Numbered from the stretch's first letter, positions 9,970-30,459 are shown. The stretch is DNA of 64,000 bases from an uncultured delta proteobacterium (GCA_963760795.1 CAVXEP010000008.1:1-64000), one strand, 5' to 3'. Notes: generated from the sequence alone by a model not told the origin. Program-made: numbers and translations.

Positions 9970-10009
9970 AAACTGTTTCTCAAAGACTCGCAGCAAAATA
10001 ATTTTTGGG

Positions 10010-12401: not shown

Positions 12402-12403
12402 CT

Positions 12404-12480
12404 GCCACTGAGGTGACGGGGCTCAGTGGCGCCGCTGGTCCCGTGGGAGCTGTGCTGAAGGAGGCAGCGCGGGACACGGC
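12404..12480 (-). ncRNA. Candidate structured 3'-UTR RNA (two hairpins, one with a CCUCCUU loop)
   Basis: Perfect GCCACTGAG/CTCAGTGGC stem; a GTCCCG/CGGGAC stem encloses GCTG-CCTCCTT-CAGC. Confidence 0.4.
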
Positions 12481-12483
12481 AAG

Positions 12484-12678
12484 CTAATTCAAGTTACTAT
12501 TGCTTGGTTGCGACCATTTGTCGCGTTGCCGGCGGCGTTGCAGATAGGTGTCCTTGGGCCAGTCCCAATTGCGGCCTGGAAGTTCTTCGCCGAAGTACAT
12601 GGCGCCATTAACTTTGCTCTGCGCGAATACTAGTTGCCAGTAACTCGGTTTCTCCAGGTCGTTATCCATCGTTTTCAT
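12484..12678 (-). CDS. Small hypothetical protein (64 aa; alternative start 12738)
   Basis: AAGGAG RBS before ATG 12678; sigma54 promoter upstream and terminator downstream. Confidence 0.6.
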   Translation of the reverse strand: MKTMDNDLEKPSYWQLVFAQSKVNGAMYFGEELPGRNWDWPKDTYLQRRRQRDKWSQPSNSNLN

Positions 12679-12778
12679 ATTTCGGTTCTCCTTTTTACTC
12701 TTAATGCGTCGATCTAAATTTCCCAGCCGTATCTTCATGATCTCCGTCCCCGTTTGCCGCTTGTGATTACTCTCATAG

Positions 12779-12794
12779 TGCAGGAGCCGTGCCG
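12779..12794 (-). promoter_or_regulatory. sigma54 (-24/-12) promoter
   Basis: CGGCACGGCTCCTGCA = GG-N10-GC with GGCAC. Confidence 0.65.
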
Positions 12795-13151
12795 GGAATT
12801 GAAAATGACAAGTGGCTTCAGACTATCGTGAATTTTCCCAAATCAAGACCAAAACAGTGGGGCGTGGACGACCGGTGAAACTCGGCGAAACTTAAATTCG
12901 GTCACAAATGCCAGACTATTTATCCCTCAAGCACTCATTCGGATTATGGTCTAAATGAAAAACTTCTTTGGCGACAACCACTTACAACCGCAGGTGGCAA
13001 ATTAACCGCTCACTTTAGGGGAACGATTTTGCAGCTAGAGGTAGCCATGTCGCACGATCGGTGACGGTGACGCTGGATTTGCAGGTAGTTAACTTTGGTT
13101 ACGTCCGGTGTCAACGCAAGGATACACAGGAGTCTATTTGCGATTTATTAA

Positions 13152-14144: not shown

Positions 14145-14211
14145 ATTTGTTCCTGGTTTGAAGTCCAGTGTCGTTCGAAAAACTTAAGACTCGGCAGGCT
14201 GGACGATACGA

Positions 14212-14880
14212 TCACGCGTAGGCATTATAGATGCCCTGAAATTTGGCGATCTTGAAGCGCACCATATGGGCGGCCGCTTCCCGCACCAGTTGTTGTTGGT
14301 GTTCGCTGTGGGTGTGCTTGGCGATCACTTCGCTGGCCATCGCCGTATGCTCCTGGTCGGCGATGGCGTGGACGGTGAAGAACTGAATTTGTTTGTCGCT
14401 CAAGCCGTAGTGTTTCTTTAGCGCGGCGATATGTTCCTCCGAGTAGCGGCAGACCATGGTCTCGTTGACGAGAGCCGACGCGCGATTTTCCGGAGCCGAG
14501 CCGAGCAACATGCCGTGGATGGTTTTACTGGTGTGCGCCAGGCACTCGAAGATCGGTGTCGCTGTGAGAAAATCTTCTTCTTGCAAGCCGATCTCTAGGC
14601 CGAATTTTTTCGCCAGGTCGGGATGATACTGTTCCTCGTTCATCTGATAGAGAAAATATTTGAACAGCTCAGGGTCGTGGCTGTTTTTGACCATGCAGAG
14701 AGCGAAGCCTTTGAGCAGCGCATGATTATGCAAGTAATGCTGCAACGCCCAGCCCTGCAATCGTTTCGTTGACAACTTGCCGGTGCGCAGCTCGGTGAAG
14801 TAGGGCAGCTCGACCAACTCGTCGACGCCGGGTTGGATGATCTCTTTGATCAATGAATTGACGAATGCTTGAGTCGCCAT
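14212..14880 (-). CDS. Heme-oxygenase-like diiron protein (CADD/PqqC/TenA superfamily)
   Basis: NEEQYH, VNE and H-x3-D-x2-H (HAIADQEH) ligand pattern. Confidence 0.78.
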   Translation of the reverse strand: MATQAFVNSLIKEIIQPGVDELVELPYFTELRTGKLSTKRLQGWALQHYLHNHALLKGFALCMVKNSHDPELFKYFLYQMNEEQYHPDLAKKFGLEIGLQEEDFLTATPIFECLAHTSKTIHGMLLGSAPENRASALVNETMVCRYSEEHIAALKKHYGLSDKQIQFFTVHAIADQEHTAMASEVIAKHTHSEHQQQLVREAAAHMVRFKIAKFQGIYNAYA

Positions 14881-14881
14881 G

Positions 14882-15868
14882 CTAATTCCTCTTTTCCTTG
14901 AATACTTCATCTGTCAGTGAGTAGTCCATGACCTGCGCGGCCGGCACGGGAGTCGGAATCAGTTTTGCCGCGAAAGCTTGATCGTAAATGTCTTGCAGCT
15001 CTTTGATCGGGATCTTGCCGTCGGTGGTGAAACCGTTGAGCCAGGATTTATAAGACTCCTCGGCGACCTTCGCCGGGATTTTCCATTTGTTCTGAATGTA
15101 GTTGACCATCCAGGCTCTTTCTTTCCGGTTGAAATCCATCGCTTCGAAGACCGCGCGAATGACCGCCTTGACTCCAGCGGGGTCTTTTTTCAGTTTGGTT
15201 TCATGGGTGGCCATGCCGCCGGAGGCGGAGCGCAGGTTGAACTCCGGCCCCGAGGCGATCTCGCGATAACCCCTTTGCACCATGACGACGTTGTGCGGCA
15301 GCGACAGCACGGCGGCAGCGACGTTGCCCTGGCTGAGCGACTGTACGCTATTCGATACCGAGCCGGTCTGAATGTAGGTCACTTGATCTGGATTGACGCC
15401 CTTCCGCTTAATCAGATCGCGGGCGACGATGTCTTGCAACGTTGCCAGGCGATCGACCGCGACGGTTTTGCCGACGAGATCTTCGGCGCGGCGGATCTCG
15501 GGATTGCCGATTAACCAGAACAGCGTGCGGTCATGGGTGACCATGATGCCTTTGAACGGCAGGCCACGCGCGGCGGCGACCAGCGGCCCGGTGATGCCGG
15601 TTAGATAGTCGATCTCGCCGGAGACCAACGCCGAAGTCTGCACCGCGCCGGCGAGCTGGACCAGATCGACATCGAGGCCATGCTTTTTGAAGATGCCGGC
15701 GTCCTTGGCGACGAAGAAAGTTAGGAAGGTCAGGCTGAAAGCCGGGTAGCCCATGCGGACTTTTTTAAGTTCTTGGGATCGGACGGATTGGACGGATAAG
15801 AACAATAGTACGAATGTTAGGAGAACTCGTGCGGCGAGATCTTTGCCGTGCGTCGGGATAGTTGTCAT
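14882..15868 (-). CDS. NMT1/SsuA-type substrate-binding protein
   Basis: Signal peptide, GIFKKHGLDVDLV, ALVSGEIDY, MDYS C-terminus. Confidence 0.87.
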   Translation of the reverse strand: MTTIPTHGKDLAARVLLTFVLLFLSVQSVRSQELKKVRMGYPAFSLTFLTFFVAKDAGIFKKHGLDVDLVQLAGAVQTSALVSGEIDYLTGITGPLVAAARGLPFKGIMVTHDRTLFWLIGNPEIRRAEDLVGKTVAVDRLATLQDIVARDLIKRKGVNPDQVTYIQTGSVSNSVQSLSQGNVAAAVLSLPHNVVMVQRGYREIASGPEFNLRSASGGMATHETKLKKDPAGVKAVIRAVFEAMDFNRKERAWMVNYIQNKWKIPAKVAEESYKSWLNGFTTDGKIPIKELQDIYDQAFAAKLIPTPVPAAQVMDYSLTDEVFKEKRN

Positions 15869-16102: not shown

Positions 16103-17056
16103 CTAGCGCTTGGCAAACACTTTCTCAATAAACCCTTCCTTAGCGAGTTTGTCGACAATGCTATTGTCGATCACTTTCGCTGTCAGCGATTCGGCGTCGA
16201 CGCCTTTGACGGGCTCGAATTCCAACGTGGTGGCGACGTTGCGCGGATCGACGCGCGGAATTTTTTCGATGTAGCGGACGACGATGCTGTACATTTTCTC
16301 CAGGAAGCCGGGATCGCTCCGCTTGAAATATTTTTGCAGCACCTTGAGGGTCGTTTCCTTGTCGTGATGCATCAGCGCTACCGCGTCGATGTAGGCGCGC
16401 ATGGCACGCTCGACGGTGACGGAGTTCTTACGCAGAAAGTCTTGGGTGACCGCCATGACGTTCATGGCGAAGGGGATGTCGAGATCGGCGGCATTGAGCA
16501 GGGCGCGAGCCGGCGCGCGCGGCTTGACCGCCGTCACCATGCCGGCCAGTTGTTTCTGTTCAAATGCGGCTTGGACCTCCGGTGCACCGCCGAGCGGACG
16601 CTGGGTGACGGTTTTCTCCATGCCGAACTTGCGTAGGATCAATGTTGTCACCGTGTGCGCCGTCGAATTGTATCGCGTGATGCCGAGGGACTGTCCCTTG
16701 AGCTGATCGGTCCTGGTGATTTCCGGCTGGACGTACAACGTCATCGGCGGTTTGTTGGTCATGGCGCCGATGGTCAGCACCGGCGCGCCGCGGGCGGCGG
16801 CGAGCACGACACCGCTCATGCCCGGCGCGCTCAGTTCCAAGCTGCCGCCGAGGAGCGCCTGGATATTAGTCCCGCTCGACGCGATGTAGACCAGTTGCAC
16901 GTCGAGGCCGTATTTTTTGAACATGCCGGTCTCGTGCGCCATCCAGATGCTGGCGACGGTGGGGGCGACGATGGGGTAAGAGAGACGCAAAGGCGCGGCG
17001 AACGAGTTTCTTTCCACGAGTGCGAAAAGCGCGATCACCAGCAAAACCTGTTTCAC
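16103..17056 (-). CDS. NMT1/SsuA-type substrate-binding protein (start approximate)
   Basis: Signal peptide VKQVLLVIALFAL..., GMFKKYGLDVQLV, IDNSIVDKLAKEGFI. Confidence 0.85.
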   Translation of the reverse strand: MKQVLLVIALFALVERNSFAAPLRLSYPIVAPTVASIWMAHETGMFKKYGLDVQLVYIASSGTNIQALLGGSLELSAPGMSGVVLAAARGAPVLTIGAMTNKPPMTLYVQPEITRTDQLKGQSLGITRYNSTAHTVTTLILRKFGMEKTVTQRPLGGAPEVQAAFEQKQLAGMVTAVKPRAPARALLNAADLDIPFAMNVMAVTQDFLRKNSVTVERAMRAYIDAVALMHHDKETTLKVLQKYFKRSDPGFLEKMYSIVVRYIEKIPRVDPRNVATTLEFEPVKGVDAESLTAKVIDNSIVDKLAKEGFIEKVFAKR

Positions 17057-17219
17057 GGCGGCGACTGTATCTGTGTTGACTGCGAAATTCGAGAGGGAAT
17101 AATGGCGGAATTCTGCCAAACGATCCCATGGTCGGTTGTCGTTTACGCGAATGATTGAAGCGCTTTTCCCGGGAATGAGAAAATTTCCCATGAAATTGCC
17201 GGTACGAGCCGATTTGCGA

Positions 17220-17235
17220 TGGCATCGGGGTTGCG
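17220..17235 (+). promoter_or_regulatory. sigma54 promoter of tctCBA
   Basis: TGGCATCGGGGTTGCG matches TGGCAY-N5-TTGC. Confidence 0.75.
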
Positions 17236-17329
17236 GTACTTCTTGGTAGGATTGAGGGATATTTGCTCCAAGCTCGTCTAAACCTTGTGCCGCCAAAATA
17301 GCCGGCGGCGATTCTAAGGAGGAGACATT

Positions 17330-18304
17330 ATGAGAACCAAGCTGTTTAGTATCGTTGCAGGGATTGCGCTGCTGGGTATAGCTCCGCTGAACGCCCAGGA
17401 ATACCCGAACAAGGTTATTAGCATGGTGGTACCGTTCGCCGCAGGTGGCCCGACGGATACTGTGGCGCGGCTGATCGGCGTGCCGATGACCAAGACCCTT
17501 AAGCAACAGGTCATCGTAGAGAATGTCGGCGGCGCCGGCGGAACAATCGCCGCAAACCGAGTCGCGAAAGCACCACCCGATGGCTACACGATTCTTATAC
17601 ACCATATCGGCATGTCCACCGCGCCCGCCCTCTATCGCAAGCTGCCTTATAACCCAGCGACCGACTTCGAGCCCATCGGCTTGATCAACGAAGTGCCGAT
17701 GACCCTGGTGGCGAAAAAGGACTTTCCGGCCAAGGATCTGAAGGAGCTGATCGCTTATGTTAAAGCCAACAAGGAGAAGGTCAATTACGCCAACGCTGGC
17801 CTCGGCGCCGCCTCGCATCTGTGCGGGATGATTTTCATGAGCGCGATCCAGACAGACGTCACCACCGTTCCTTATAGCGGAACGGCCCCAGCCATGAATG
17901 ATCTGCTCGGCGGCCAGGTGGACTTCATGTGCGATCAGACTACGAACACGACCAGTCAAATCAAAGCGGGAAAGATCAACGTCTATGGCGTGACTACTAA
18001 GAAACGTGTGGCTTCGTTGCCCAATGTCCCGACCATGGACGAAGCGGGGTTGAAAGGCTTCGAGGTTTCGATCTGGCATGCTCTCTACGCGCCGAAGGGT
18101 ACGCCGAAGCCGGTTATCGATAAGCTTACCAATGCGCTGCAGGATGCCATGAAAGATTCGACGGTGAAGCAGCGTTTCGCCGACCTGGGCACCGAACCCG
18201 TGGCGCTAAACCGAGCCACCCCAGCGGCGTTGAGCGCGCATCTCAAAGCAGAGATCGACAGATGGGCGCCAATTATCAAGAAGGCTGGAGTTTATGCCGA
18301 CTAA
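17330..18304 (+). CDS. tctC: Tripartite tricarboxylate transporter substrate-binding protein
   Basis: VVPFAAGGPTD, ENVGGAGG, PDGYT, VPYSG, PKGTP; AGGAG RBS. Confidence 0.93.
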   Translation: MRTKLFSIVAGIALLGIAPLNAQEYPNKVISMVVPFAAGGPTDTVARLIGVPMTKTLKQQVIVENVGGAGGTIAANRVAKAPPDGYTILIHHIGMSTAPALYRKLPYNPATDFEPIGLINEVPMTLVAKKDFPAKDLKELIAYVKANKEKVNYANAGLGAASHLCGMIFMSAIQTDVTTVPYSGTAPAMNDLLGGQVDFMCDQTTNTTSQIKAGKINVYGVTTKKRVASLPNVPTMDEAGLKGFEVSIWHALYAPKGTPKPVIDKLTNALQDAMKDSTVKQRFADLGTEPVALNRATPAALSAHLKAEIDRWAPIIKKAGVYAD

Positions 18305-18331: not shown

Positions 18332-18362
18332 AAAGGCCGGGCTTCGTCCCGGCCTTTTTTTG
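18332..18362 (+). terminator. Intrinsic terminator or stabilising hairpin after tctC
   Basis: AAAGGCCGGG-cttcgt-CCCGGCCTTT followed by a T run. Confidence 0.8.
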
Positions 18363-18435: not shown

Positions 18436-18900
18436 TTGAAAACTCTTATGACGCGCAATCCCAAAGATTTCTGGACCGGCTTGCTCTATATCTTCTTTGG
18501 CGCGAGCGCGATTATCATAGGTCGTGATTACAACATGGGAACGGCCCTCAGAATGGGCCCAGCTTTTTTCCCCACTATTCTTGGCGCGGTGCTCGCCGTC
18601 ATCGGCGCGATTGCAGTGATTCGATCCTTCATCACGCCTGGCACGCCGATCGGTGCGGTTTCGTTCAAGGGGCTGGTGCTGGTCACGCTGTCGGTCGTCG
18701 CCTTTGGCTTCCTTGTGCGCGGCGCGGGATTGGTGGTCGCCCTGCCGCTGCTCGTGATCATCAGCGCGTACGCGAGCACGCGTTTCCAATGGCGCTCGGC
18801 GCTTATCATGGCGGCGGGTCTGACGATCTTTTGCGCCTTGGTCTTTGTCATAGGCTTGGGTATACCGCTGCCGATCATCGGTCCCTGGTTGGGCAGTTGA
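18436..18900 (+). CDS. tctB: Tripartite tricarboxylate transporter small subunit
   Basis: MGPAFFP motif, 4-5 TM segments, between tctC and tctA. Confidence 0.9.
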   Translation: MKTLMTRNPKDFWTGLLYIFFGASAIIIGRDYNMGTALRMGPAFFPTILGAVLAVIGAIAVIRSFITPGTPIGAVSFKGLVLVTLSVVAFGFLVRGAGLVVALPLLVIISAYASTRFQWRSALIMAAGLTIFCALVFVIGLGIPLPIIGPWLGS

Positions 18901-18931: not shown

Positions 18932-20431
18932 ATGGAATTACTCGATCATCTGCTGCTGGGGTTTCAGACCGCCGGGACACTCAGCAATTTGTTTTACTGC
19001 TTCATCGGCGTTTTTCTCGGCACAGCGATTGGCGTGCTACCTGGCCTCGGCCCTACAGCCACCATCGCCATGCTGCTGCCGGTTACTTTCGTGTTGCCGC
19101 CGGTGACCGCGCTCATCATGCTGGCGGGCATCTATTACGGTTCGCAGTACGGCGGCTCGACGACTTCGATTCTCGTCAATCTTCCGGGCGAAGCCGCGTC
19201 GGTAGTTACGACGCTGGACGGTTACCAGATGGCGAAGCAAGGCAGGGCGGGAGCGGCGCTTGCGGCGTCAGCGCTCGGGTCGTTTTTCGCCGGCACCGTC
19301 GCCACATTTCTGATTGCCGCCTTCGGCCCGCCGCTGGCCGCCGTCGCGTTGCAATTCGGACCGGCGGAATTTTTCTCGCTGATGGTCCTGGGCCTGGTGG
19401 CTTCCGTGGTGCTGGCGCAGGGCTCGTTGCTCCATGCCATCGGCATCGTCGTGCTCGGCCTGCTCTTGGGTCTCATCGGCGCCGATGTCAATTCCGGCAC
19501 CCAGCGCTTTACATTCGGTATGTATGAGCTTGCCGACGGCATCGGTTTCGTCACCGTGGCAATGGGAATGTTTGGCCTGGGCGAAATCATTCGCAATCTC
19601 GAAAACGAAGCAGGCCGCTCCGTGATGCTCACTAAAATTACCGGACTGTGGCCCACGCGTGAAGAGCTCAAGCGCATGGTTGCACCGATTCTACGCGGCA
19701 CGGTGATCGGCTCGGCATTGGGCATTCTTCCCGGCAGCGGCTCGATCTTGGGTTCCTTCGCCGCTTATTCCATCGAAAAGAAAATCTCCAAGCATCGCGC
19801 CGAGTTCGGCAAAGGCGCGATCGAAGGCGTCGCCGCGCCGGAGGCAGCTAATAATGCCGGCGCGCAAACCTCTTTTATTCCACTGCTCACTTTAGGGATT
19901 CCATCCAATCCGGTCAGCGCCCTGATGGTCGGAGCCATGATTGTTCACGGCATTCAGCCCGGACCGTCGGTGATCAACGAACAACCGGCGCTTTTTTGGG
20001 GCATGATCGTGTCGATGTGGATCGGCAACCTATTTCTAGTGGTTCTTAACTACCCGCTGATCGGCATGTGGGTGCGCATGATCATGATTCCCTACCACCT
20101 ACTATTTCCGGGAATTCTGGTCTTCTGCGCCATCGGTGTGTTCAGTCTTAAAAATGCTACCTTCGATATATATTTGATGGCCCTGTTCGGCATCATCGGC
20201 TATGTTTTCTCCAAACTCGGCGCCGAACCGGCGCCGATGTTGTTGGCATTCATCCTTGGGCCATTGATGGAAGAGTATCTGCGACGCGCCATGCTGCTCT
20301 CCCGCGGCGATCCGATGGTTTTCCTGCGCCGGCCGATCAGCGCGACCTTGTTAGCCTTATCCGCCCTCGCCATGCTTTCGGTATTGCTGCCGTCGTTCAG
20401 CAAGACCCGGGAAGAAGCCTTTAAGGAATAA
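18932..20431 (+). CDS. tctA: Tripartite tricarboxylate transporter large subunit
   Basis: [43 protein letters not shown]. Confidence 0.95.
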
Positions 20432-20514: not shown

Positions 20515-21324
20515 ATGAGACTGCGAGATAAAATCGCCTTGGTCACGAGCGCGCAACACCCCTGCGCTCGCGCCATCGCCTTGGGATTTGCCCGAGAAGG
20601 TGCAGATTGCGTCGTCGTCGATGAAGACACGAGTCGCGCGGAACAGCTCGCCGCCGAAGTTCGCGCCCTGGGGCGGCGCGCTCTACCCCTCCAGTTCGAT
20701 GTCACCCAGAAACCTCAGGTCGAGGAAGGCGTCAGGCGCGCGGTTGTTGAGTTTGGCCGCATCGATATACTACTCAACTGTTCGGGCGCGAACCATCAAA
20801 GTGATTTCTTAACTTTTACCGAAGAAGCATTCAATCGCTGCATCGATCGTGGGCCCAAAGCCTACTTTCTTAGTGCGCAGGCCGTCGGAAAGCAGATGGC
20901 CGAGCGGCGCTCCGGCAAGATTATCAATCTTTCGACCACCGACGCGCGCGTAGGATCGGGCGAGTCGACGGGCAATAGCGCTGCCTACTCCAGTATCGAT
21001 GCGATGACGCGCGCGATCGCACAGGCGCTGGGATTTTATGGCGTCAACGTGAACTCGCTGGTCTGCGGACCGATGGATTATTCTGCCGGGGTTGCCGACG
21101 AAGCCGCAGAGCGCCTGCGGCGCATTCCCTTGGGCCGATTAGGCAAGCCTGAAGATCTTGTCGGCGCGGCGATCTTTTTGGCCACGGATGATTCGAATTT
21201 TGTCGCCGGCGAGACTCTCTACGTCGACGCCGGCTATTCCAATGCCGCCGTAACCGAAGACAGTTTTCGGCCCGCATGGGGACGCACCTGGGGAAAATTC
21301 GAGGTTCCATCCGAGAACAAGTGA
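20515..21324 (+). CDS. SDR-fold protein with degenerate cofactor and catalytic motifs
   Basis: FGRIDILLN, GKIINLS, IPLGRLGKPED, YVDAG; TSAQHPCA replaces TGxxxGxG. Confidence 0.85.
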   Translation: MRLRDKIALVTSAQHPCARAIALGFAREGADCVVVDEDTSRAEQLAAEVRALGRRALPLQFDVTQKPQVEEGVRRAVVEFGRIDILLNCSGANHQSDFLTFTEEAFNRCIDRGPKAYFLSAQAVGKQMAERRSGKIINLSTTDARVGSGESTGNSAAYSSIDAMTRAIAQALGFYGVNVNSLVCGPMDYSAGVADEAAERLRRIPLGRLGKPEDLVGAAIFLATDDSNFVAGETLYVDAGYSNAAVTEDSFRPAWGRTWGKFEVPSENK

Positions 21325-21352
21325 CCGACGTGTTTTTAGGGAGATCAATTTT

Positions 21353-22231
21353 ATGGGAATTAAGTTCAAGGAAGTGAACACGTTGTCGTTTATTGGCAAT
21401 ATCGGCCCCAAGACCGAGCGCGTGTGGAAGGAAGTGGATGAGGAAATCGACATTATCGGTTGCCAAGAAAAATTCGACCGGCGTTGCCAACTGATCGCGC
21501 CGCTGAATTTATTGGCAAAGGATCTTCCCGGCGACGGCGATACCAAACAGGTGCCGATCTTTGTCAACGACGATGTGCGCATTGAGTTGATGCATTGCCG
21601 CTCGTCGAAGGGGGCCGATGGACACAGGCCGGCGGGATTTTGCGAAACGCAGATTCAAGTGCAGAACAAACGCGTGACCAAGACATCCGAAGGCGACTTC
21701 GAGCTTACCGAAGGCGACGTCCTCGTCGTGCCGCCGGAAATAAGCCATGAAAATAACGGCGACGGCCCAACCACGCGGCTGGTCGTGTATACACGAAAAC
21801 CGGTTCAGATCGCCCAAACATATCCCGTCAAAGAGAGCGTTGTGCCGAACAAACGGTGCACATTGCTGAAACCAACGACGGTGCTCGACAAAGTCGAAGA
21901 AGGCGGCTCCGGCGGCAAGCATTTCGAGCTGGTGGAGAACGCCGACATCATGATCGAAACCACGCACCGCTCGGATGCACAGAGAATCTATCACCGGGGT
22001 TTCGGCCAAGATGAAGTTGCATTCCAACTGTCCGGCCGGCGCGCGACCCTGACCAGCCAGGGAGAATATATGTTGGAGACCGGCGACTTTTTGCTGATTC
22101 CGCCGGGAACCTCGCACCGCAATATCGGCGACATGGCGACGATCCGGATCATCCTTTACGCCAGAAAGCCGTTGCGCTTGGCGGACGAGTTTGTCGAGCG
22201 TTCCAAACGGGCGGGACAGGCGATTTCGTGA
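21353..22231 (+). CDS. Bicupin protein (possible dioxygenase or lyase)
   Basis: Two internal repeats, each with H-x6-E...G-D-x4-PP-x2-SH. Confidence 0.75.
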   Translation: MGIKFKEVNTLSFIGNIGPKTERVWKEVDEEIDIIGCQEKFDRRCQLIAPLNLLAKDLPGDGDTKQVPIFVNDDVRIELMHCRSSKGADGHRPAGFCETQIQVQNKRVTKTSEGDFELTEGDVLVVPPEISHENNGDGPTTRLVVYTRKPVQIAQTYPVKESVVPNKRCTLLKPTTVLDKVEEGGSGGKHFELVENADIMIETTHRSDAQRIYHRGFGQDEVAFQLSGRRATLTSQGEYMLETGDFLLIPPGTSHRNIGDMATIRIILYARKPLRLADEFVERSKRAGQAIS

Positions 22232-22247
22232 TCCTGTTGGTTACTCA

Positions 22248-23252
22248 ATGAACGGATTTTTTTACCAGGCAATTTCGCGAACCCGAATGTCGGTATGCCT
22301 CGCCGCTTTTTTGGCGAGCGCAGCAAGTGCGTTCGCCGCCTCAGTCGACAGCATCCGAGTTTCATATGCGACGCTGAGCGCTGCTTATATGGATCATATT
22401 TGCGCCATGGACAGAGGCTACTTTCGCGAAGAGGGGCTTAATATCGAAGTCATCCGCGCCCCCGGCGGTGTGGCGACTCCAGGCCTGTTGTCGGGGCAGT
22501 TTCATTTCAGCAGCTCGGCGAGCTCAGCGGTGAGCGCGGCGGTGCGCGGCGGCCCGGTAAGGATCGTCTACACAAATCTCTCGCGTCCGAGCTACACCCT
22601 GGTTTCGATAAAACCGGAGATCACCTCGGCGAAAGAATTGATCGGAAAAAAAATCGCCATCAATAGCTTCGGTGACACCGGCCATCTATCGACGATTCTC
22701 TATCTGAAGAAGATGGGCGTTAATCCCTCGTCCGTGCTTTTCATTGCGGTTGGAAGAAACGAAGTCCGTTTTCCGGCTCTCCGTACCGGTACCATTGACG
22801 CGACTCCGCTGGTGCCGCGTGACATGGTCTTCCTAAAGGATCAAAAACACATCGTCCTCGCCGACTTGGGGAAAGAGATCCAGTTGGTGTGGAATGGTGT
22901 TGCCGTCTCCACCAAGCTTTTGGCCGAAAATCCGCAGCTCGTCGAGCGATTTCTGCGCGGCTTGGCGAAGGGCCGGGAGTTCGCCCGGCGCTACCGCGAC
23001 GAGACTATTTCGCTCATCAGCAAGCGTGATCCTTCTCCTATCGAGGCCATCAGAGTCGACTACGATGTGACCAAAGCGAGCATGACCGAAGACGGCTCGT
23101 TACCTGACGAGGTTCTAGTACAGGAAATTGCCACGCGGGCGGAACTGACTAAAGTCGCCACGCCACCTAACATATCGACCGCGTTCGATTACACTATTAC
23201 GAGAAAAAACTACGCCCAGCTTAAAGCCACAGGCTGGCAGCCGGTTCGATGA
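22248..23252 (+). CDS. NMT1/SsuA-type substrate-binding protein
   Basis: Signal peptide, GYFREEGLNIE, ELIGKKIAI, FDYT. Confidence 0.85.
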   Translation: MNGFFYQAISRTRMSVCLAAFLASAASAFAASVDSIRVSYATLSAAYMDHICAMDRGYFREEGLNIEVIRAPGGVATPGLLSGQFHFSSSASSAVSAAVRGGPVRIVYTNLSRPSYTLVSIKPEITSAKELIGKKIAINSFGDTGHLSTILYLKKMGVNPSSVLFIAVGRNEVRFPALRTGTIDATPLVPRDMVFLKDQKHIVLADLGKEIQLVWNGVAVSTKLLAENPQLVERFLRGLAKGREFARRYRDETISLISKRDPSPIEAIRVDYDVTKASMTEDGSLPDEVLVQEIATRAELTKVATPPNISTAFDYTITRKNYAQLKATGWQPVR

Positions 23253-23256
23253 AGCA

Positions 23257-24048
23257 ATGAAGCTCGAAGGAAAAATAGCCATCGTTACGGGTTGCAACGG
23301 CGAATTCGGTTCGGCCATCGTGCCCGGATTTGCCGCCGAAGGTTGTGATGTCGCATGTGTGGATTTCCAGCAGAGTGACGCCGATGCGGCGGCAGAAAAA
23401 GTGCGGCAAAAAGGCCGGCGCGCGTTAGCGATCGCCATTGATCTAAGAAAGCGCGGCGAAATTGACGCGATGGTCAAACAAGTCGTCGATCAGTTCGGGC
23501 GCATCGATATTCTTGTCAACACTACCATGGCCTCGCACAACCAGGAGTTTTTGAATTTTAAGGAAGAAGACTTTGACGATACGTTGAGCAGGGGCGTGAA
23601 GAGTTACTTTCTTACCTGCCAAGCTGCCGCCCAGCAGATGGTCAGACAGCGCTACGGCAAGATCATCAATCTAAGTTCCATCGTCGGCGTGCTCGGCCCC
23701 GGCCAGGCCGCGTCATGGACCGCGGATCGCGGCGCGGTCAACGGCCTGACCCGCGCGGCGGCGCATGCGCTGGGATTTTACGGCATCAATGTGAATGCGG
23801 TGGCGCGCGGCAACACGGCGCGCAAGCCTTACAACGCCGGCGTTCTCGAGCGAGTCCGCAGGTTGCCTCTGGGAAGGACGGAAACCGCAGAGGACATGGT
23901 CGAGCCCTGTGTCTTTCTAGCCTCCGACGGCGCCAGTTACGTCACCGGGACAATTCTTTACGTCGATGGCGGCTACACGGTCGCCGGCGTCACCGATGAC
24001 CGTTATCGCCCCGAGTGGGCACGCGCCGACGCCGAGGAAAAGGAATAA
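23257..24048 (+). CDS. SDR-fold protein with W-x3-R in place of Y-x3-K
   Basis: AIVTGCNGEFG, FGRIDILVN, GKIINLSS, YVDGG. Confidence 0.85.
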   Translation: MKLEGKIAIVTGCNGEFGSAIVPGFAAEGCDVACVDFQQSDADAAAEKVRQKGRRALAIAIDLRKRGEIDAMVKQVVDQFGRIDILVNTTMASHNQEFLNFKEEDFDDTLSRGVKSYFLTCQAAAQQMVRQRYGKIINLSSIVGVLGPGQAASWTADRGAVNGLTRAAAHALGFYGINVNAVARGNTARKPYNAGVLERVRRLPLGRTETAEDMVEPCVFLASDGASYVTGTILYVDGGYTVAGVTDDRYRPEWARADAEEKE

Positions 24049-24057: not shown

Positions 24058-25026
24058 TCACACGGCTTCGCCGGCCAACGCGCTCTCGACAAACAGCTCC
24101 TCGACTGCAAGCTTTCTATCCGTTACGCCGACCCATTCCGCATAGCGCGTCATGGTCTCCAACACGACCCGGTTGTCTTCAATGTTGTAGGGCCACGCGT
24201 CTTCGCCGAAGAGCTCTCTCTCTTCTTCCAATTCGGCGCCGTACCAAGCGAGAAATGATCGCCGTGTATCGCTGACATGTTTGATGCCTATCTCCTTGGC
24301 CTTGGTGAAAGCTTCGACGAGATTTCGAGCGACCCAAGGATCGCGTTCGAGTATGGAATTCTTGACAACCACCACGTGGCGTATCGGGAAGATCTTAGTG
24401 CGCAGATAATATTCCTTTTCCACGTCGCGAAAATTCGGCCACAAGCGGCGCACACCGGAAATATGACGAGTGTGCTTCGGCGTGATTTCCGGCAACATGC
24501 AGGCGTCGATTTCACCGCGCGGCAAGACATCTTCTATTTTTTGTCCCTTCGGTAAACGGTCAATCTCCATCCAATCCGGTGGTTGCCAGCCGGGAACCTG
24601 CTCCAGCTGATTGGTGCGAATTTTTAGCGCGCGCGCCGGCACGCCGTATTCTTCCTGCAGCACGCCGCGCATCCAGAGCGATACCGGATTGAAGTGGGCG
24701 CGCATGCCGATAATTTTTCCAGCGAGGTCTTCGGGTTTCTGAATACCACTGGCAGCATGGACGAGCACGTTGCCGTGGCAAAACTTGCGGTGCGGAAACA
24801 CCGGGATCGCCGTGAACGGTGCGCCACGGGCCATCCAACCGAGAAACACACCCATCTGGAGCTCGCAAACGTCGAATTCCAGATCGCGGGAGAACCGTCT
24901 GTGGCGCTCTTCCGAGGGCAGAGAGATAATGTTTAAATCGATTCCTTCGGCCTTAATGGTTCCATCGACCAAAAAGCGCGTTCGATCGTATTCGTTGCAC
25001 GATAACGTGAGGCTTAGCGGTTCCAT
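24058..25026 (-). CDS. Second 4,5-dihydroxyphthalate decarboxylase-like protein
   Basis: EYDRT, EFDVCEL, PVFPHRKF, IFPIRH, DAWPY. Confidence 0.78.
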   Translation of the reverse strand: MEPLSLTLSCNEYDRTRFLVDGTIKAEGIDLNIISLPSEERHRRFSRDLEFDVCELQMGVFLGWMARGAPFTAIPVFPHRKFCHGNVLVHAASGIQKPEDLAGKIIGMRAHFNPVSLWMRGVLQEEYGVPARALKIRTNQLEQVPGWQPPDWMEIDRLPKGQKIEDVLPRGEIDACMLPEITPKHTRHISGVRRLWPNFRDVEKEYYLRTKIFPIRHVVVVKNSILERDPWVARNLVEAFTKAKEIGIKHVSDTRRSFLAWYGAELEEERELFGEDAWPYNIEDNRVVLETMTRYAEWVGVTDRKLAVEELFVESALAGEAV

Positions 25027-25027
25027 A

Positions 25028-25981
25028 TTAAAAGTCCAATTGCGGTTTGATTTCATTCAACAGCATTCGCGCCTGTCCGGGCACATCATCCGACGCGATG
25101 CGCGCGATGATCGTCGTCAGGCCGGCGTCGATGTAGCCTTTTAGCAAACCCACGCATTCTTCAGGCGTGGCGAAGATCGTGAAGAAGTGTCCAAGCTTGG
25201 TTCGCGGCACGCCAAAGAATTTCTCCATCCATTGCCAGCCTGCTACTTTCGCCTTTTCCGCGTCGTCAGAAATATTGAAAGTCACGTAGAGCGCGGTTTC
25301 GCGCAGTTTACCCACTCGGCCATAGCTTTCGGCGTGCTCAGCGATCTTTGCGCGGGCGCCGGTGAAACGTTCGAGTGTCGGCGCCAGCGTGACCCAACCG
25401 TCGCCCAAACGGGCGACGCGCTTGAAACCGGTGTCGTTGCGGTCGGCGACGATCCAGATGGGAATGCCGGGCTGCTGCGCCGGGCGGGGCAGGATGCCGA
25501 CATCGTGCAGTTTGAAGTAACGGCCTTCATAGTCGATTTTGGTCTCGCTCCACAGCCGGCGCATGATCTCGATGGTCTCGCTCAATCTTCCCGCTTTTTC
25601 CTGGGGCGGCACGCCGCAAGCGGCGAACTGGCGCTGAATGTAGTCGCGCACCGGACCGACGCTGACGCCTAAAATAATTCTGCCGTTGGAAATCACATCG
25701 ATGGTCGCCAGCGCGTGGGCGAGTAGCACCGGATTCCGCAACGCCGGCAGCATCGGCACGATTCCCAGACGAATCTTGCTGGTGCGCGCCGCCAACGCCG
25801 CCATGGTCGTCAAGCAATCGCCGCGCGCTTTGTCCAAAACCGTGACGCTGTCGCCGAGCCAGATGTGGTCGAAACCGAATTCCTCGGCTTGTTCCGCATC
25901 GGCCCAAAGGTGCCCGAAGCTTTTGCTGGCGTCTTCGGTGCGAATCAGTTGTCGGGTGTGCAATAGTAAGCCGATTTGCAT
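25028..25981 (-). CDS. LLM-class (flavin/F420-dependent) oxidoreductase
   Basis: AEEFGFDHIWLGDS, RNPVLLA, ATIDVISNGR, RVARLGDGW. Confidence 0.9.
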   Translation of the reverse strand: MQIGLLLHTRQLIRTEDASKSFGHLWADAEQAEEFGFDHIWLGDSVTVLDKARGDCLTTMAALAARTSKIRLGIVPMLPALRNPVLLAHALATIDVISNGRIILGVSVGPVRDYIQRQFAACGVPPQEKAGRLSETIEIMRRLWSETKIDYEGRYFKLHDVGILPRPAQQPGIPIWIVADRNDTGFKRVARLGDGWVTLAPTLERFTGARAKIAEHAESYGRVGKLRETALYVTFNISDDAEKAKVAGWQWMEKFFGVPRTKLGHFFTIFATPEECVGLLKGYIDAGLTTIIARIASDDVPGQARMLLNEIKPQLDF

Positions 25982-26086: not shown

Positions 26087-27100
26087 TTACTTCGATGCCT
26101 TCAACGCCCGTTCCCAGCCGAGATCCCTCAGCTCTTTGTAAACTTCGCGGGTGAAGCGGAAGTCGAAAATTTGTTCGACGGGCACGTCTTTTTGGACGTT
26201 AAGCATGCGCTTGGCGATCTCGATATCCGACTTTTGCGTGTCGGCATCTTCGGTGCCGTCGGCGGTCATCATTTCCATCGTCGCATCGTAGTCGGCGGTA
26301 CGCACGTCGTCCGGTGCTTTATCGTATTTTTTGCCCAGAGCCAGCGCTTGAGCTTTGTTGCGTTTGACGAACTCGCGGCCCTTGACGGTGGCGCGCAGAA
26401 AACGGCGCACCAGGTCCGGCCGCTTGACCACGGTTTCTTCCGCCGCGGCCAAGCCGGTGTAGAGCATTTTGATTTCTTTGCCGATGTTGACCACTTCATG
26501 CACGGGAAAGCCGCGCGTCTGCATGCGCAGCGAGTCGGCGAAGCCCAAGACCGCGGAATCTACCGCCTTTGCCGCCAGCGAGGTCACCCGGCCACCGGTG
26601 CCCAGGGCGACCCAGATGACGTCGCGCACCGGGTCCAGGTTGTATTTGCGCAGCATTAAATTGGCCGCGCCTTCCATGGTGTCGCCGCGTGAGGCGATGC
26701 CGATGCCTTTGCCGCGCAGGTCCGGCACCTTGCGAATGTCGTCGCGCCAACTGAGGATTTTATACAGCGGCCGGTCGAGATTGACGTAGACAACTTTGAG
26801 TCTGATGCCGCGCAGGCTGGCATTCAATGACGAACCCGAAGACGTGCTGAAGTGGAGATCGCCGGCGACCAAGGCCTGGGTCGCCAACCCGCCTGGCATA
26901 GCGATGACTTCGACATTCAACCCCTCGTCGCGGTAGTAGCCCAGCTCCTTGGCGACGAAATGGGGATAATAAATCACCCCGAAGCTGGCGAATGACACGC
27001 GCAGAGTTTCGAGGTTGGGCACTTGCGCCAACAGAGAACCTGGCCCAACCGCCAGAATGAGCACGGATGCCATGCCCAGGAACAAAAATTTAAACTTCAT
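26087..27100 (-). CDS. NMT1/SsuA-type substrate-binding protein
   Basis: Signal peptide MKFKFLFLG..., GYYRDEGLNVE, DLRGKGIGI, IFDF. Confidence 0.87.
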   Translation of the reverse strand: MKFKFLFLGMASVLILAVGPGSLLAQVPNLETLRVSFASFGVIYYPHFVAKELGYYRDEGLNVEVIAMPGGLATQALVAGDLHFSTSSGSSLNASLRGIRLKVVYVNLDRPLYKILSWRDDIRKVPDLRGKGIGIASRGDTMEGAANLMLRKYNLDPVRDVIWVALGTGGRVTSLAAKAVDSAVLGFADSLRMQTRGFPVHEVVNIGKEIKMLYTGLAAAEETVVKRPDLVRRFLRATVKGREFVKRNKAQALALGKKYDKAPDDVRTADYDATMEMMTADGTEDADTQKSDIEIAKRMLNVQKDVPVEQIFDFRFTREVYKELRDLGWERALKASK

Positions 27101-27208
27101 CGCAATATGATTTACATAGCTGGTGAACCCACTCAAACGCAAGGTCGCCAGCGCTGCTTGTCTCACTTGCGCGGCTGCGATATACACGCAGCTTGAGGAG
27201 TTAAACTT

Positions 27209-28108
27209 ATGACTAATTCCACCCCGATCAATTTGGAACGCATCGATCACGGCGTCTTGCCGTCCAACGATCTCGGCCGCTCGTTTCGCTTCTGGTCGTC
27301 ATTCATGGGCGGGCAGATCGGCCATCACACCAATCTGACCGTGCGCGGTCTCAACCGCGAAGTGCCGATGATTATTTTTATGACGGTTGCCAATCACCGC
27401 GGTTTTGGCCTGGCGTTACAGGATTTTCGCATCTCGCCCAACCCGGCGCGCCGCTTGGACGGCGTGGTCTGGGGCTTTGAAGTGGCCGATAACAATCTCG
27501 ATGCTGCCAGTGCGGAGGCGGAAAAGCAGAAGCTGCATTTCGAGCGCGTCGCAGATTATCCGGCGTCAAGTCCGATCAAAGAATCGCTCTTTGTCATCGA
27601 TCCCGACGGCAATACGGTGGAGTTGTGTATCCGCAAACAGCCCTCGGATCAAGCGCCACAATCTGGTCCGGTTCCGCTCCGGCGCATCAGTCATGTGCGT
27701 GTCGAGGTGACCGATCTCGAACAAGCACGTGACTGGTACGCCAACACCTTCGGGCTCGTCGTTGGCGAGCAAGTACCTGGAGAAAACCAACTGACGATGA
27801 CGGTTGCCAAGTCGAATCAGTTCGTCATATTGCGCGATGTCGACAAGGTCGCCGACCGCAGCACGCAATGTTACAAAGGGCCGCATATAGATCTGCGCTC
27901 GGATGAAGCGTCTTACCCGGAAATTCTCAAGCGCTTTAACCGCAAGGAAACCTATTGGGGGCCCGACCCAAATTTGATCCCGTGGCATGAGCCCGACACC
28001 AATACCGCCTACGGCTACGATCCGTTCGGCAATCGCATCCAGATCGGCATCATCGCGAAGCGGCCGATGCATCATGGCGACGTGGCGCGTTTTCGCCAAC
28101 AGCCATAG
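27209..28108 (+). CDS. Two-domain VOC (glyoxalase/extradiol dioxygenase) family protein
   Basis: IDHGVL...DPDGNTVEL and ISHVRVEVTDLE...DPFGNRIQI; GAGG RBS. Confidence 0.85.
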   Translation: MTNSTPINLERIDHGVLPSNDLGRSFRFWSSFMGGQIGHHTNLTVRGLNREVPMIIFMTVANHRGFGLALQDFRISPNPARRLDGVVWGFEVADNNLDAASAEAEKQKLHFERVADYPASSPIKESLFVIDPDGNTVELCIRKQPSDQAPQSGPVPLRRISHVRVEVTDLEQARDWYANTFGLVVGEQVPGENQLTMTVAKSNQFVILRDVDKVADRSTQCYKGPHIDLRSDEASYPEILKRFNRKETYWGPDPNLIPWHEPDTNTAYGYDPFGNRIQIGIIAKRPMHHGDVARFRQQP

Positions 28109-28219
28109 GGTGGCGCACTTGCCATCGGGTTGGTAGCCTCAAAGAACGCAAAGTGCTCAAAAAATGAATTCCGAAATATCGGGGTGGTTTTCAAACCCGT
28201 CCTTGCTCTTCAATTTCGA

Positions 28220-29209
28220 ATGATTTTACCAAGACTGTTATCCTTGCTCGTCGTCGCACTTGTCGTGGCCCCGTTAGGAGCGCAAGCCGTTCACGCGGCG
28301 GAGGACAAGGTCCGCTTTTCCGTCGCCGCCGTCACCGGCAGTTATATGGACGAGTTTGTCGCCATCGAGAAGGGTTATCATCGCGAAGAGGGCCTCACGG
28401 TGGAGATGATCCGAGCCGGCGGCGGTATCGCGACTCAGGCGTTGATCTCAGGGGATCTCCATTTCAGCACTTCGGCCGGTTCGGCGTTGAGCGCCATGTT
28501 GCGCGGCGCTGAGATTAAAGTCATCTACACCAATATAGACCGGCCGGGCTATCAGCTCTGGTCGGGCCACGGCGATATCAAGCAGTTGAAAGATCTACGA
28601 GGCAAGCGTGTCGGCGTCACCAGCCGCGGCGATACCCAGGAACTGTCGGTGCGTTTGTTGCTGCGCAAGTATGGCATCGACGCCAACTCGGTGTCCTATA
28701 TGCCGGTGGGCTTCGGCGCCCAGCGCTTGGCCGCTCTGCAAGCGGGCAGCGTCGACGCCGTGCCGCTGGGCGCGGGGGACTTCGCGCAGTTGAAACAGCC
28801 CAAGGGCCATATGCTCGGCGACACGGAAAAAGAGATTCGCTTCGCATACGTCGGTTTGGCAGTGGCGAGCAAACTGATCGCGCGCCAGCCGGAGTTGGTC
28901 GAGAAATATCTCCGCTCCGTGATCAAAGGCCGGGAATACGCGCGTCGTTACCGCGAGCAGACGATTACGATCCTCGGCAAGTACACCCAGCGCAAACGCG
29001 AATTCAACGAGGTCGACTACGATTCCACGCTGCCAGTGTTGACCGCCGAGGGCTGGGTCGGCGACGATATCATCAAAGAAGACGTCGCCATGCGCGCCGA
29101 GTTGGTTAACGCGCCGGCACCCAACGACTACAATAAGTTTTTCGACTATAGCATAGTCAGGAGAATTTACCGCGATCTGAAAAACGCCGGGTGGAAGCCA
29201 GCTCCGTGA
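28220..29209 (+). CDS. NMT1/SsuA-type substrate-binding protein
   Basis: Signal peptide, GYHREEGLTVE, DLRGKRVGV, FFDYS. Confidence 0.87.
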   Translation: MILPRLLSLLVVALVVAPLGAQAVHAAEDKVRFSVAAVTGSYMDEFVAIEKGYHREEGLTVEMIRAGGGIATQALISGDLHFSTSAGSALSAMLRGAEIKVIYTNIDRPGYQLWSGHGDIKQLKDLRGKRVGVTSRGDTQELSVRLLLRKYGIDANSVSYMPVGFGAQRLAALQAGSVDAVPLGAGDFAQLKQPKGHMLGDTEKEIRFAYVGLAVASKLIARQPELVEKYLRSVIKGREYARRYREQTITILGKYTQRKREFNEVDYDSTLPVLTAEGWVGDDIIKEDVAMRAELVNAPAPNDYNKFFDYSIVRRIYRDLKNAGWKPAP

Positions 29210-29391: not shown

Positions 29392-30459
29392 TCACAGCCC
29401 CGGCCGATAAAATCTCATGGCGTTGCCGCCGAGCACCGCTTCTTTGTCTTCCTGGGATAGATCGTCGCGGGCGAGCAACTCATCGATCTCGTGGCGGCAT
29501 TTGGCGGCGTCGAAGACTTCGTGGGGAAAGTCGCTGCCGAAGAGAAATGACTGGCGTCCGCCTTTGGCGACCGCAGTGTTCAAGCCGTCATCGTCGCAGT
29601 CGAAGCCGACCAAGATGCGCCCTTCGCGCAGTTGGGTCTTGAAATAGTCGCTGGCTTTTTCACCCGGCGCCGGACCGCCGAGGCGATTGCCGTGGATGTC
29701 CATTTGCACGTGGCCGTCGTGATAGGAGCGGTCGAGACGGTCCATCATGAACGGCACCCAGGTGGCGCCGCCTTCGAGAAAGCCGACGCGCAGTTTGGGA
29801 AAGCGATCGAAAACTCCATGGCCGATCATGGCCGAGGCTTGAATCATCAAGCTAAATGGATGGCCCAATGCGTGCACCGGATAGTATGTCGTGAACGCAT
29901 CCATGCCCATGTGATGCAGCGCGCCGACGTGGACGGCGAGGCAACAGCCTAATTTTTCTGCTTCTTCATAGAGCGGCCAATAAACTTTGTTGCCGAAATG
30001 TCCCTGAATCGCCTCGCCGTTGGACGGCAGCATGCCGCCCAACATGCCCAGTTGTTTGACTGCGCGGCGCAATTCGACAATCGCCGCGTCGACATCCTGG
30101 AACGGAATCAGCGCGACGCCTTTGAGGCGGGGGTTCTTGGTCAAAAACTTTTCATGGAGCCATGTATTATAAGCTCGGCACGCGATCACCGCCCAGTCGG
30201 GCGCCATGATGCGGCCGACGGCGAGGCCCGCAGTGGGGTAGAGGACGGTCCAGCTGATACCGGTCTTTTCGAGAAACTCAGTCCATGCCGCAGCGTCGGG
30301 GTTGCCGGTGGCGCGGCGATTCTCTTTCAAGTAGCGAAAGTGCAGATGATCGAACTCGGGAAATAGCTTCGCCATCTGATTGCCCTTGGGCATATACTGG
30401 GCGATCTCGTCGCCGCAGATATGGTCGTTGATATGGCCGTCGGCATCGATGATTTGCAT
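29392..30459 (-). CDS. Amidohydrolase_2 family protein
   Basis: IDADGH, RAYNTWL, LAVH, FLEGGATWVP, FGSDFPH. Confidence 0.92.
   Translation of the reverse strand: MQIIDADGHINDHICGDEIAQYMPKGNQMAKLFPEFDHLHFRYLKENRRATGNPDAAAWTEFLEKTGISWTVLYPTAGLAVGRIMAPDWAVIACRAYNTWLHEKFLTKNPRLKGVALIPFQDVDAAIVELRRAVKQLGMLGGMLPSNGEAIQGHFGNKVYWPLYEEAEKLGCCLAVHVGALHHMGMDAFTTYYPVHALGHPFSLMIQASAMIGHGVFDRFPKLRVGFLEGGATWVPFMMDRLDRSYHDGHVQMDIHGNRLGGPAPGEKASDYFKTQLREGRILVGFDCDDDGLNTAVAKGGRQSFLFGSDFPHEVFDAAKCRHEIDELLARDDLSQEDKEAVLGGNAMRFYRPGL

Follow-up and report, generated by a model that had tools for sequence, protein, structure and literature searches.

What do two proteins with a short-chain dehydrogenase/reductase (SDR) fold do once both have lost the catalytic tyrosine and lysine of their superfamily? 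The question is raised by a 64,000-nucleotide stretch of DNA from an uncultured delta proteobacterium (GCA_963760795.1 CAVXEP010000008.1:1-64000, the window from here on), in which two paralogous SDR genes, SDR-A and SDR-B, flank a bicupin and a solute-binding protein (SBP1). The four open reading frames (ORFs) lie in series with gaps of 28, 16 and 4 bp, as an original prediction made from the sequence had placed them:

20515..21324, plus strand: SDR-A, 269 aa, SDR-fold paralog whose Gly-rich loop is degenerate (Pfam adh_short/adh_short_C2)
21353..22231, plus strand: bicupin, 292 aa (Pfam Cupin_2/JmjC_2)
22248..23252, plus strand (longest ORF from 22191): SBP1, solute-binding protein of the NMT1/SsuA type (Pfam NMT1, E 1e-24)
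23257..24048, plus strand: SDR-B, 263 aa, SDR-fold paralog (Pfam adh_short/adh_short_C2)

SDRs are among the largest enzyme superfamilies, and the two proteins belong to a clade that has swapped the Tyr, Lys and Asn of the superfamily for a different, equally conserved set of residues. Our tentative reading, at a probability of about 0.45, is that SDR-A and SDR-B make up a hetero-oligomeric SDR-fold protein that is not a classical Tyr/Lys NAD(P) oxidoreductase, with SDR-B as the working and SDR-A as the supporting subunit.

Residue replacements and their conservation

SDR-A and SDR-B are 45% identical to each other, and matches to adh_short/adh_short_C2 (E 1e-37 to 1e-48) assign both to the SDR fold. 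The best sequence matches are FabG/KduD-type SDRs (30-36% identity, E down to 6e-42), with BbsD (7pcs_B, E 6.5e-35) as the best match of SDR-A in the PDB, and homologs carry the annotations “SDR family NAD(P)-dependent oxidoreductase”, FabG or KduD in their source databases. No NCBIfam model reaches its cut-off for either protein. The clade is thus captured by no curated family, and automatic annotation returns a generic NAD(P)-dependent SDR or FabG/KduD.

Residues were placed by HMMER alignments to KduD (4z9y) and BbsD (7pcs_B), and by a MAFFT alignment that included 129 canonical SDRs drawn from the nearest 50%-identity representatives. In the canonical set the tetrad columns hold Asn in 105, Ser in 125, Tyr in 123 and Lys in all 129 sequences. 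At these columns SDR-A carries Gly113, Thr141, Asn154 and Tyr158, keeping none of the four residues, and SDR-B carries Gly113, Ser141, Trp154 and Arg158, keeping one; neither protein has the tetrad of a classical SDR. The cofactor motifs TGxxxGxG, NNAG and PG...T are likewise absent from both: SDR-A reads TSAQHPCA, NCSG and CG in their places, and SDR-B reads TGCNGEFG (Glu for Gly16), NTTM and RG...R. The tetrad replacements, including Gly for the Asn, together with TSAQHPCA and NCSG in SDR-A and NTTM in SDR-B, had been called in the original prediction and are borne out by the alignments. So are the motifs said to be common to the two proteins, namely RGxKxYFL, Hx3FLxFxEExF, ALGFYGxNVN and the C-terminal tail VT[ED]DxxRPxW. 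The conserved tail adds 10-25 residues, and most of the 129 canonical SDRs are gapped there.

The replacements are fixed states in both SDRs, not decay or chance, because they recur throughout 104 full-length homologs of SDR-B (60-92% identical) and 121 sequences of the SDR-A family (77-96% identical). In SDR-B, Ser141, Trp154, Asp157, Arg158, Gly113 and Asp36 are each present in 104/104 sequences, and Glu16 and Phe17 in 103/104. Among the SDR-A sequences Gly113, Pro114 and Lys115 occur in 121/121, Asn154 in 115, Tyr158 in 114, and Thr141 in 104, with Ser in the other 17. The SDR-A tail residues Val246, Thr247, Glu248, Phe251, Arg252, Pro253, Trp255, Trp259 and Phe262 are conserved in at least 99%, compared with a mean column conservation of 0.87.

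All genes of the cluster are under purifying selection. Pairwise Nei-Gojobori comparison of 7-16 orthologs per gene gave dN/dS of 0.11 for SDR-A, 0.06 for SDR-B, 0.08 for the bicupin, 0.07 for SBP1 and 0.085-0.10 for the other neighbours, ratios that are rough since dS is saturated (about 1.3-1.5). Relaxed selection combined with a normal YxxxK in the homologs, which would have undone the prediction of a conserved SDR-fold family lacking the Tyr/Lys redox machinery, is not what these data show. The looser replacements in SDR-A, together with a dN roughly twofold that of SDR-B (0.162 vs 0.073), are consistent with SDR-A being the less constrained, supporting subunit.

The SDR-B substitutions include five at which canonical SDRs meet the cofactor, the new residues being E, W, R, R and R. 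Besides Trp154 and Arg158, these comprise Glu16 at a pyrophosphate-facing position (Gly in 126/129 canonical SDRs), Arg184 (99%) at the Pro of the PG motif (P in 120/129) and Arg189 (97%) at the carboxamide-binding Thr (T in 111/129). Asp157 replaces the residue that precedes the catalytic Lys, where canonical SDRs have Ser or Ala, and Asn186 and Thr187 are also invariant. Judged from these residues, the nicotinamide/substrate side of the SDR-B cleft appears to be an arginine-rich pocket, in which nicotinamide chemistry may have been lost and a site for an anion, presumably a carboxylate, gained.

In an AlphaFold2 (AF2) monomer model of SDR-B, the predicted local distance difference test (pLDDT) score is about 93-98 across residues 1-90 and stays under 50 in most of the stretch 229-263. 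The matches listed by a Foldseek search with the model are all classical SDRs, the nearest being NAD(P)-bound FabG and KduD at a template modelling (TM) score of 0.71-0.74, and a search of the ESM Atlas with SDR-B returned generic SDR clusters only. The low confidence of the modelled tail would be compatible with a tail that needs a partner, without proving it.

Gene linkage and descent of the pair

Downstream of SDR-B, and upstream of SDR-A, lie the following genes, several of which recur in related loci:

17330..18304, plus strand: TctC-type solute receptor of a tripartite tricarboxylate transporter (Pfam TctC, E 8e-73)
18436-18900, plus strand: TctB, membrane part of the transporter (Pfam TctB, E 6e-16)
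18932-20431, plus strand: TctA, membrane part of the transporter (Pfam TctA, E 4e-159)
24058..25056, minus strand: cytoplasmic protein with a periplasmic-binding-protein (PBP) fold, homolog of 4,5-dihydroxyphthalate decarboxylase (PDB 9jp7)
25028..25981, minus strand: luciferase-like monooxygenase (LLM) oxidoreductase, F420-type subfamily (Pfam Bac_luciferase, E 3e-50)
26087..27250, minus strand: SBP2, second NMT1-type solute-binding protein (Pfam NMT1, E 1e-23)
27209..28108, plus strand: two-domain vicinal oxygen chelate (VOC) protein, glyoxalase/extradiol-dioxygenase fold (Pfam Glyoxalase, two stretches)
28130-29209, plus strand: third NMT1 protein (Pfam NMT1)

SDR-A and SDR-B are inseparable in gene linkage. 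In 80 metagenome loci anchored on SDR-B, with counts restricted to those having enough flank, SBP1 stands directly upstream of SDR-B in 55/55 and SDR-A further upstream in 29/29. The decarboxylase homolog lies within 500 bp downstream of SDR-B in 44/47 (two of the three misses have it slightly further off), and the LLM is near SDR-B in 31/35. The bicupin sits between SDR-A and SBP1 in 22/37 loci, and the other 15 read SDR-A, SBP1, SDR-B. Co-occurrence of the two SDRs and the bicupin had been put forward as a check of the original prediction; it holds for the two SDRs and does not extend to the bicupin.

The reference loci comprise 19 anchored on the bicupin, all from Binatia or “delta proteobacterium” metagenome-assembled genomes (MAGs). 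Both SDRs accompany the bicupin in 14 of them, neither does in four, and one is a fragment. The four (L016, L019, L020 and L021) have the bicupin and SBP1 without SDR-A, SDR-B or the decarboxylase homolog, and a search of their genomes with the query used found no SDR-B homolog anywhere, the best match being 33-36% identical. The bicupin is accordingly dispensable, though frequent, as a neighbour and also occurs without the pair, and the idea that it is their obligate partner has to be given up.

The pair has another setting in g10, a sister genus within the order. Its A-like protein (A') is 56-57% identical to SDR-A, with a TGVGGRIG loop and S-x12-W-x3-R, the motif that SDR-B also has (S-W-R type). 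In 8/8 g10 loci B' and A' are directly adjacent, a VOC protein (44-47% identity) directly follows A', and B', A' and VOC lie on one strand with the bicupin and a second cupin on the other. An LLM of 62% identity lies about 6 kb from the B'/A' cluster, and no NMT1 protein, Tct system or decarboxylase homolog was found in the eight loci. One g10-type locus, L026 (G209:C1:1084000-1103999), has nearby an M24 creatinase-like protein, an ornithine cyclodeaminase/mu-crystallin protein, an ABC binding protein and permease, a 377-aa HgmA_N-like cupin, two small VOC proteins and hydantoinase A/B, neighbours that hint at a different or nitrogen-containing substrate in g10.

Among 301 genomes sampled from the class, 13 have a match to the A/B clade at E<=1e-67; 11 of the 13 show both types, and the two that do not are fragmented assemblies.

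The clade was also searched in 1.84 billion 50%-identity representatives. There the SDR-A family forms one cluster, followed by a few clusters at 42-48% identity, of which the full-length ones examined all bear the tail; canonical SDRs begin at 40% identity or less. The active sites of the tail-bearing clusters are of the S-W-R type (the SDR-B type, P0250, P0256 and P0269), S-F-K (P0243, found in a Chloroflexota MAG) or S-S-C (P0246). The Gly-rich loop varies among members (TGVGGRIG, TGAR--VG, TGAGSAGA and TSAQHPCA). The clade is abundant in soil metagenomes, with hundreds of 90%-identity clusters, and its known hosts are Binatia and at least one Chloroflexota MAG. A further metagenome scan with a clade-wide alignment, aimed at distant S-W-R members, recovered close SDR-B relatives only (84-97% identity).

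In an IQ-TREE phylogeny of 49 sequences picked by hand from the search lists (24 tail-bearing and 25 canonical), tail-bearing and canonical SDRs are split at 100/100. SDR-A groups with g10 A' at 90/76, and SDR-B with g10 B' at 100/100. S-W-R is the commonest state in the tail-bearing clade and, with canonical SDRs as the outgroup, is probably the older state of the group formed by A and B. The SDR-A of the window would then be a further degenerated, long branch (length 0.55) from an S-W-R ancestor, since its g10 orthologs are still S-W-R. By this descent the two SDRs are not equivalent.

Possible functions of the pair

Under the hetero-oligomer reading, SDR-A and SDR-B would associate, and the tight pairing of the two genes fits such a heteromer. 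SDR-B would be the working subunit, its cleft rebuilt as an anion-binding pocket from Ser141, Trp154, Asp157, Arg158, Arg184, Asn186, Thr187 and Arg189. SDR-A would be its degenerated partner, in which fold, dimer helices and the conserved aromatic C-terminal tail persist. The imported substrate would be an anion, the likeliest candidates being dicarboxylates or tricarboxylates, aromatic or alicyclic, and would be handled by a catabolic module made up of the pair, an NMT1-type binding protein, the 4,5-dihydroxyphthalate decarboxylase homolog and the F420-type LLM. The step performed by the pair is probably non-redox, of the isomerase, tautomerase, lyase or decarboxylase type.

The closest precedents for such a division of labour are BbsCD of Thauera aromatica and petunia benzaldehyde synthase (PhBS), alpha2beta2 SDRs whose inactive paralog lends the complex stability and, with its C-terminus, lines the diagonal subunit's active groove (PMC13418739). 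By analogy, the SDR-A tail probably reaches the active site of its partner, completing or capping it. As in these systems, two paralogous SDR genes are encoded together and co-inherited, and Asn154 and Thr141 of SDR-A are the same Tyr-to-Asn and Ser-to-Thr changes that this source reports for inactive beta subunits of the PhBS type. The likeness ends at the other subunit, which in BbsCD and PhBS is a canonical NAD(P)-dependent SDR with Tyr and Lys; in SDR-B all of Tyr, Lys and Asn are gone, and Arg stands at both the PG Pro and the carboxamide-binding Thr.

Halohydrin dehalogenases (HHDHs) offer a second comparison. They are SDR-fold lyases with a Ser-Tyr-Arg catalytic set and an anion pocket where the cofactor would lie, defined by the motifs S-X12-Y-X3-R (catalytic) and T-X4-F/Y-X-G (nucleophile pocket), and in HheC a C-terminal extension sends a Trp into the active site of the opposing monomer (PMC4989007). 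SDR-B shares with HheA-G the SDR fold and Ser...Arg in place of Ser...Lys, and would like them do without redox chemistry; its proposed anion pocket would likewise occupy the cofactor site and involve Gly-loop residues, an aromatic one among them. Both SDR-A and SDR-B have a conserved C-terminal tail ending in Trp. The catalytic Tyr of the HHDHs, however, is Trp in SDR-B (S-X12-W-X3-R) and Asn in SDR-A (T-X12-N-X3-Y), and T-X4-F/Y-X-G fails in SDR-B, where the aromatic residue comes one position later (T-GCNG-E-F-G), and in SDR-A (T-SAQH-P-C-A). HHDHs are also homotetramers, unlike the proposed A/B hetero-oligomer, and no HHDH is among the matches listed for the sequence or fold searches with SDR-B. 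The comparison made in the original prediction therefore survives as an analogy, and membership of the HHDHs is rejected, as both of their defining motifs are missing.

Several observations weigh against the hetero-oligomer reading. It is only gene order that speaks for binding between SDR-A and SDR-B; a prediction of the A-B complex, with the chains given as alignments and run without controls, scored 0.29 and 0.25 where the mark is 0.32 and bears on binding in neither direction. The low-confidence region of the SDR-B model takes in the C-terminal 35 residues, and the position of the tail is not fixed by it. The saturated dS weakens what the selection estimates can add. The absence of the decarboxylase homolog and SBP1 from the g10 cluster means that the pathway partners are not fixed. 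Finally, the adenosine side of the SDR-B cleft is retained, with Gly12, Gly18, Asp36, Asp62 and Asn88 conserved at 99-100%, so that SDR-B may still bind NAD(P) or another ADP-containing ligand, and its Gly-rich loop fits TGxxGxxG, the extended-SDR pattern.

A more specific proposal is that the tail-bearing S-W-R proteins are a new, cofactor-independent class of SDR-fold enzyme, in which an arginine-lined pocket at the former nicotinamide site holds a carboxylate and the partner's tail supplies an acid/base or a lid in trans for a non-redox step. This is doubtful as it stands. The step would be a tautomerisation, isomerisation, decarboxylation or C-O/C-C lyase reaction on an aromatic or dearomatised polycarboxylate that the F420-type LLM and the decarboxylase homolog produce or use up. 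In a bolder and much less likely version, F420, an anionic deazaflavin cofactor, would take the place of NAD(P) in the rebuilt cleft.

The strongest challenge is that SDR-B, with or without SDR-A, is after all an NAD(P)-dependent oxidoreductase whose catalytic residues depart from the canonical ones, with Asp157/Arg158 or some residue of the tail acting as acid/base and Trp154 stacking on a carboxylated substrate held by the arginines. FabG/KduD-type SDRs, the nearest NAD(P)-bound folds, share with SDR-B the fold and the conserved adenosine-side residues, among them an acidic Asp36 typical of NAD preference; the N-terminal Rossmann half is the confidently modelled part of SDR-B; and Asp157 is both invariant and specific to the family. 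SDR-B differs from those enzymes in its lost tetrad, NNAG and PG motifs, altered Gly-rich loop and added tail. Against a redox role, Tyr and Lys are gone in 104/104 sequences, Glu faces the pyrophosphate at position 16, and both the PG Pro and the carboxamide-binding Thr have become Arg. The variation of the Gly-rich loop across the clade is also unexpected under selection for dinucleotide binding. A redox role is rather unlikely.

Less probable again is that SDR-A and SDR-B are non-catalytic pseudoenzymes, subunits that would bind a ligand, form a scaffold or exert regulation for an enzyme encoded nearby, for instance the LLM, the bicupin or the decarboxylase homolog. The missing catalytic set in both proteins would be accounted for, as would their loss along with the decarboxylase homolog in the four bicupin-anchored genomes, and SDR subunits that are inactive and act structurally or allosterically are known (PMC13418739). 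A scaffold should drift at its former active site, as SDR-A partly does, whereas in SDR-B these are the most strictly conserved positions. In addition, g10 has A' and B' without the decarboxylase homolog and 15/37 loci are without the bicupin, which leaves the pair no constant enzyme partner, except perhaps the LLM.

Most bacterial SDRs are homo-oligomers, and one or two genes separate SDR-A from SDR-B in loci of the window type, but it is improbable that the two are independent homo-oligomeric enzymes for two steps of one pathway, linked by co-regulation only, given that SDR-A has lost S-W-R along with its Gly-rich loop and Arg pocket and has no obvious site of its own, that the pair is strictly co-present and, in g10, adjacent, and that the helix E/F interface motifs ALGFYGxNVN and RGxKxYFL are kept in both.

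With its exchanged residues the clade would be the second kind of SDR-fold protein without the catalytic Tyr/Lys machinery, after the HHDHs, which still use Tyr; it would also provide the first heteromeric SDR to have no canonical subunit. A full-text literature search, with most subscription journals outside its reach, found no SDR with Trp at the catalytic Tyr position and no heteromeric SDR with both subunits non-canonical, BbsCD and petunia benzaldehyde synthase being the only relevant systems. The clade also marks a conserved, uncharacterised catabolic module of an uncultured phylum (binding protein, decarboxylase homolog, F420-type LLM, VOC protein and optional bicupin), and the analysis gives a precise list of residues for mutagenesis and a defined set of genes for heterologous reconstitution.

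Bicupin, neighbouring genes and the wider window

The bicupin of the window has the triads H92-x6-E99...H133 and H214-x6-E221...H255, one in each domain as predicted, of which only the C-terminal one is conserved: His214, Glu221 and His255 are invariant in 19 aligned sequences, including 52%-identical orthologs, in which the N-domain triad is lost, and His92 is Arg in several close homologs. Its AF2 model (pLDDT 82.5, predicted TM score 0.84) has two cupin barrels and matches bicupins in Foldseek with E down to 3e-12; these are generic bicupins (TM 0.5-0.6) with no specific family among them. NCBIfam matches are far under their cut-offs (nbaC, 22.7 bits vs 146), and a PDB profile search with the bicupin alignment gave only weak quercetinase matches (best E 0.005), so that the protein is not assignable by sequence to a characterised dioxygenase family. 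It shares the two-barrel fold with quercetinase YxaG, salicylate/gentisate 1,2-dioxygenase, 3-hydroxyanthranilate 3,4-dioxygenase (3-HAO), BacB and ureidoglycine aminohydrolase, and its C-terminal His...Glu...His triad resembles that of 2-His-1-carboxylate Fe(II) enzymes. It is unlike the known bicupin enzymes in its low identity (9-19%), TM score (0.4-0.6) and unconserved N-terminal site. The bicupin is probably an Fe(II) dioxygenase or isomerase and an optional add-on to the pair. An analogy to KduI/KduD was dropped, as the bicupin showed no similarity to KduI in any search. The window holds another SDR and cupin pair, an SDR of 229 aa at 47783-48472 and a single-domain Cupin_2 protein of 158 aa at 48585-49061.

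The PBP-fold protein matches 4,5-dihydroxyphthalate decarboxylase (9jp7_A, E 8.6e-45) over residues 10-325 of 332, essentially its full length. The LLM scores 157.9 bits against the F420-dependent subfamily TIGR03619, under the cut-off of 166.9, and its best PDB matches are Mer and FGD. F420 is probably available to it, because the genome searched (a 6.58-Mb MAG in 35 contigs, assigned to Binatia by the names its homologs carry) encodes CofE (283.7 bits, over the cut-off; G000 contig C5, 40478-42857, minus strand) with a CofD-like gene next to it, and the organism thus probably makes F420; the CofD-like gene was matched in three pieces, possibly owing to frameshifts. The VOC protein has a weak HpaD match and no sequence match in the PDB.

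SBP1 scores 69.5 bits against SsuA_fam, under the cut-off. Its NMT1 match goes together with an apparent export signal: N-termini resembling signal peptides were recognised by eye in the window protein and six homologs, those of the homologs being hydrophobic and ending in AxA just before a conserved IRVSYATLSAAY. A Pfam scan of 61 window ORFs matched neither BPD_transp nor ABC_tran, and no gene for an ABC permease or ATPase adjoins SBP1 there. The sole transporter adjoining SBP1 is TctCBA, whose tctC is likewise kept upstream of the cluster in L007, L020, L021 and L022. SBP2 is kept in most related loci. Altogether nine NMT1/THI5-type genes or fragments (Pfam) lie in the window, in addition to the PBP-fold decarboxylase homolog:

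7320-8720
14882-15868
16103-17200
22191-23252 (SBP1)
26087-27250 (SBP2)
28130-29209 (the third NMT1 protein listed above)
37569-38516
44832-45782
46121-46579

Orphan NMT1-type receptors thus seem to have expanded here, much as Bug/TctC receptors have. A 658-aa ORF at 16103-18079 on the minus strand, overlapping tctC, is an ORF-calling artefact whose NMT1 match is confined to the C-terminal part (about 16103-17200); the real gene over 17330-18304 is tctC on the plus strand.

A terminator-like hairpin follows tctC at 18332-18357, and the 83-bp gap from tctA to SDR-A has no terminator-like site. A scan for promoters and terminators gave counts of 8 (4.6 +/- 1.9 in shuffled sequence) and 17 (14.1 +/- 3.6), showing no excess, and operon boundaries are therefore undefined beyond this hairpin. 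Short contigs from RNA libraries (four runs from three studies) cover parts of all four genes from SDR-A to SDR-B (23, 23, 15 and 10 of 30 bins). These are a weak hint that relatives of the cluster are expressed, more than half of the pieces being under 90% alike, with DNA carry-over possible, and contigs of this kind cannot prove a single transcript.

Elsewhere in the window, a family-B DNA polymerase is split into overlapping minus-strand ORFs at 32547-33200 and 33064-34824, both matching DNA_pol_B, which suggests a frameshift or an assembly error. The region 4609-15868 encodes a second LLM, an Amidohydro_3 protein, a UbiD-family decarboxylase (10213-11721) and a haem-oxygenase-like/TenA protein (14212-14910), and an Amidohydro_2 gene lies at 29392-30459. 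The stretch from 4 to 30 kb looks like a catabolic island for aromatic or heterocyclic acids.

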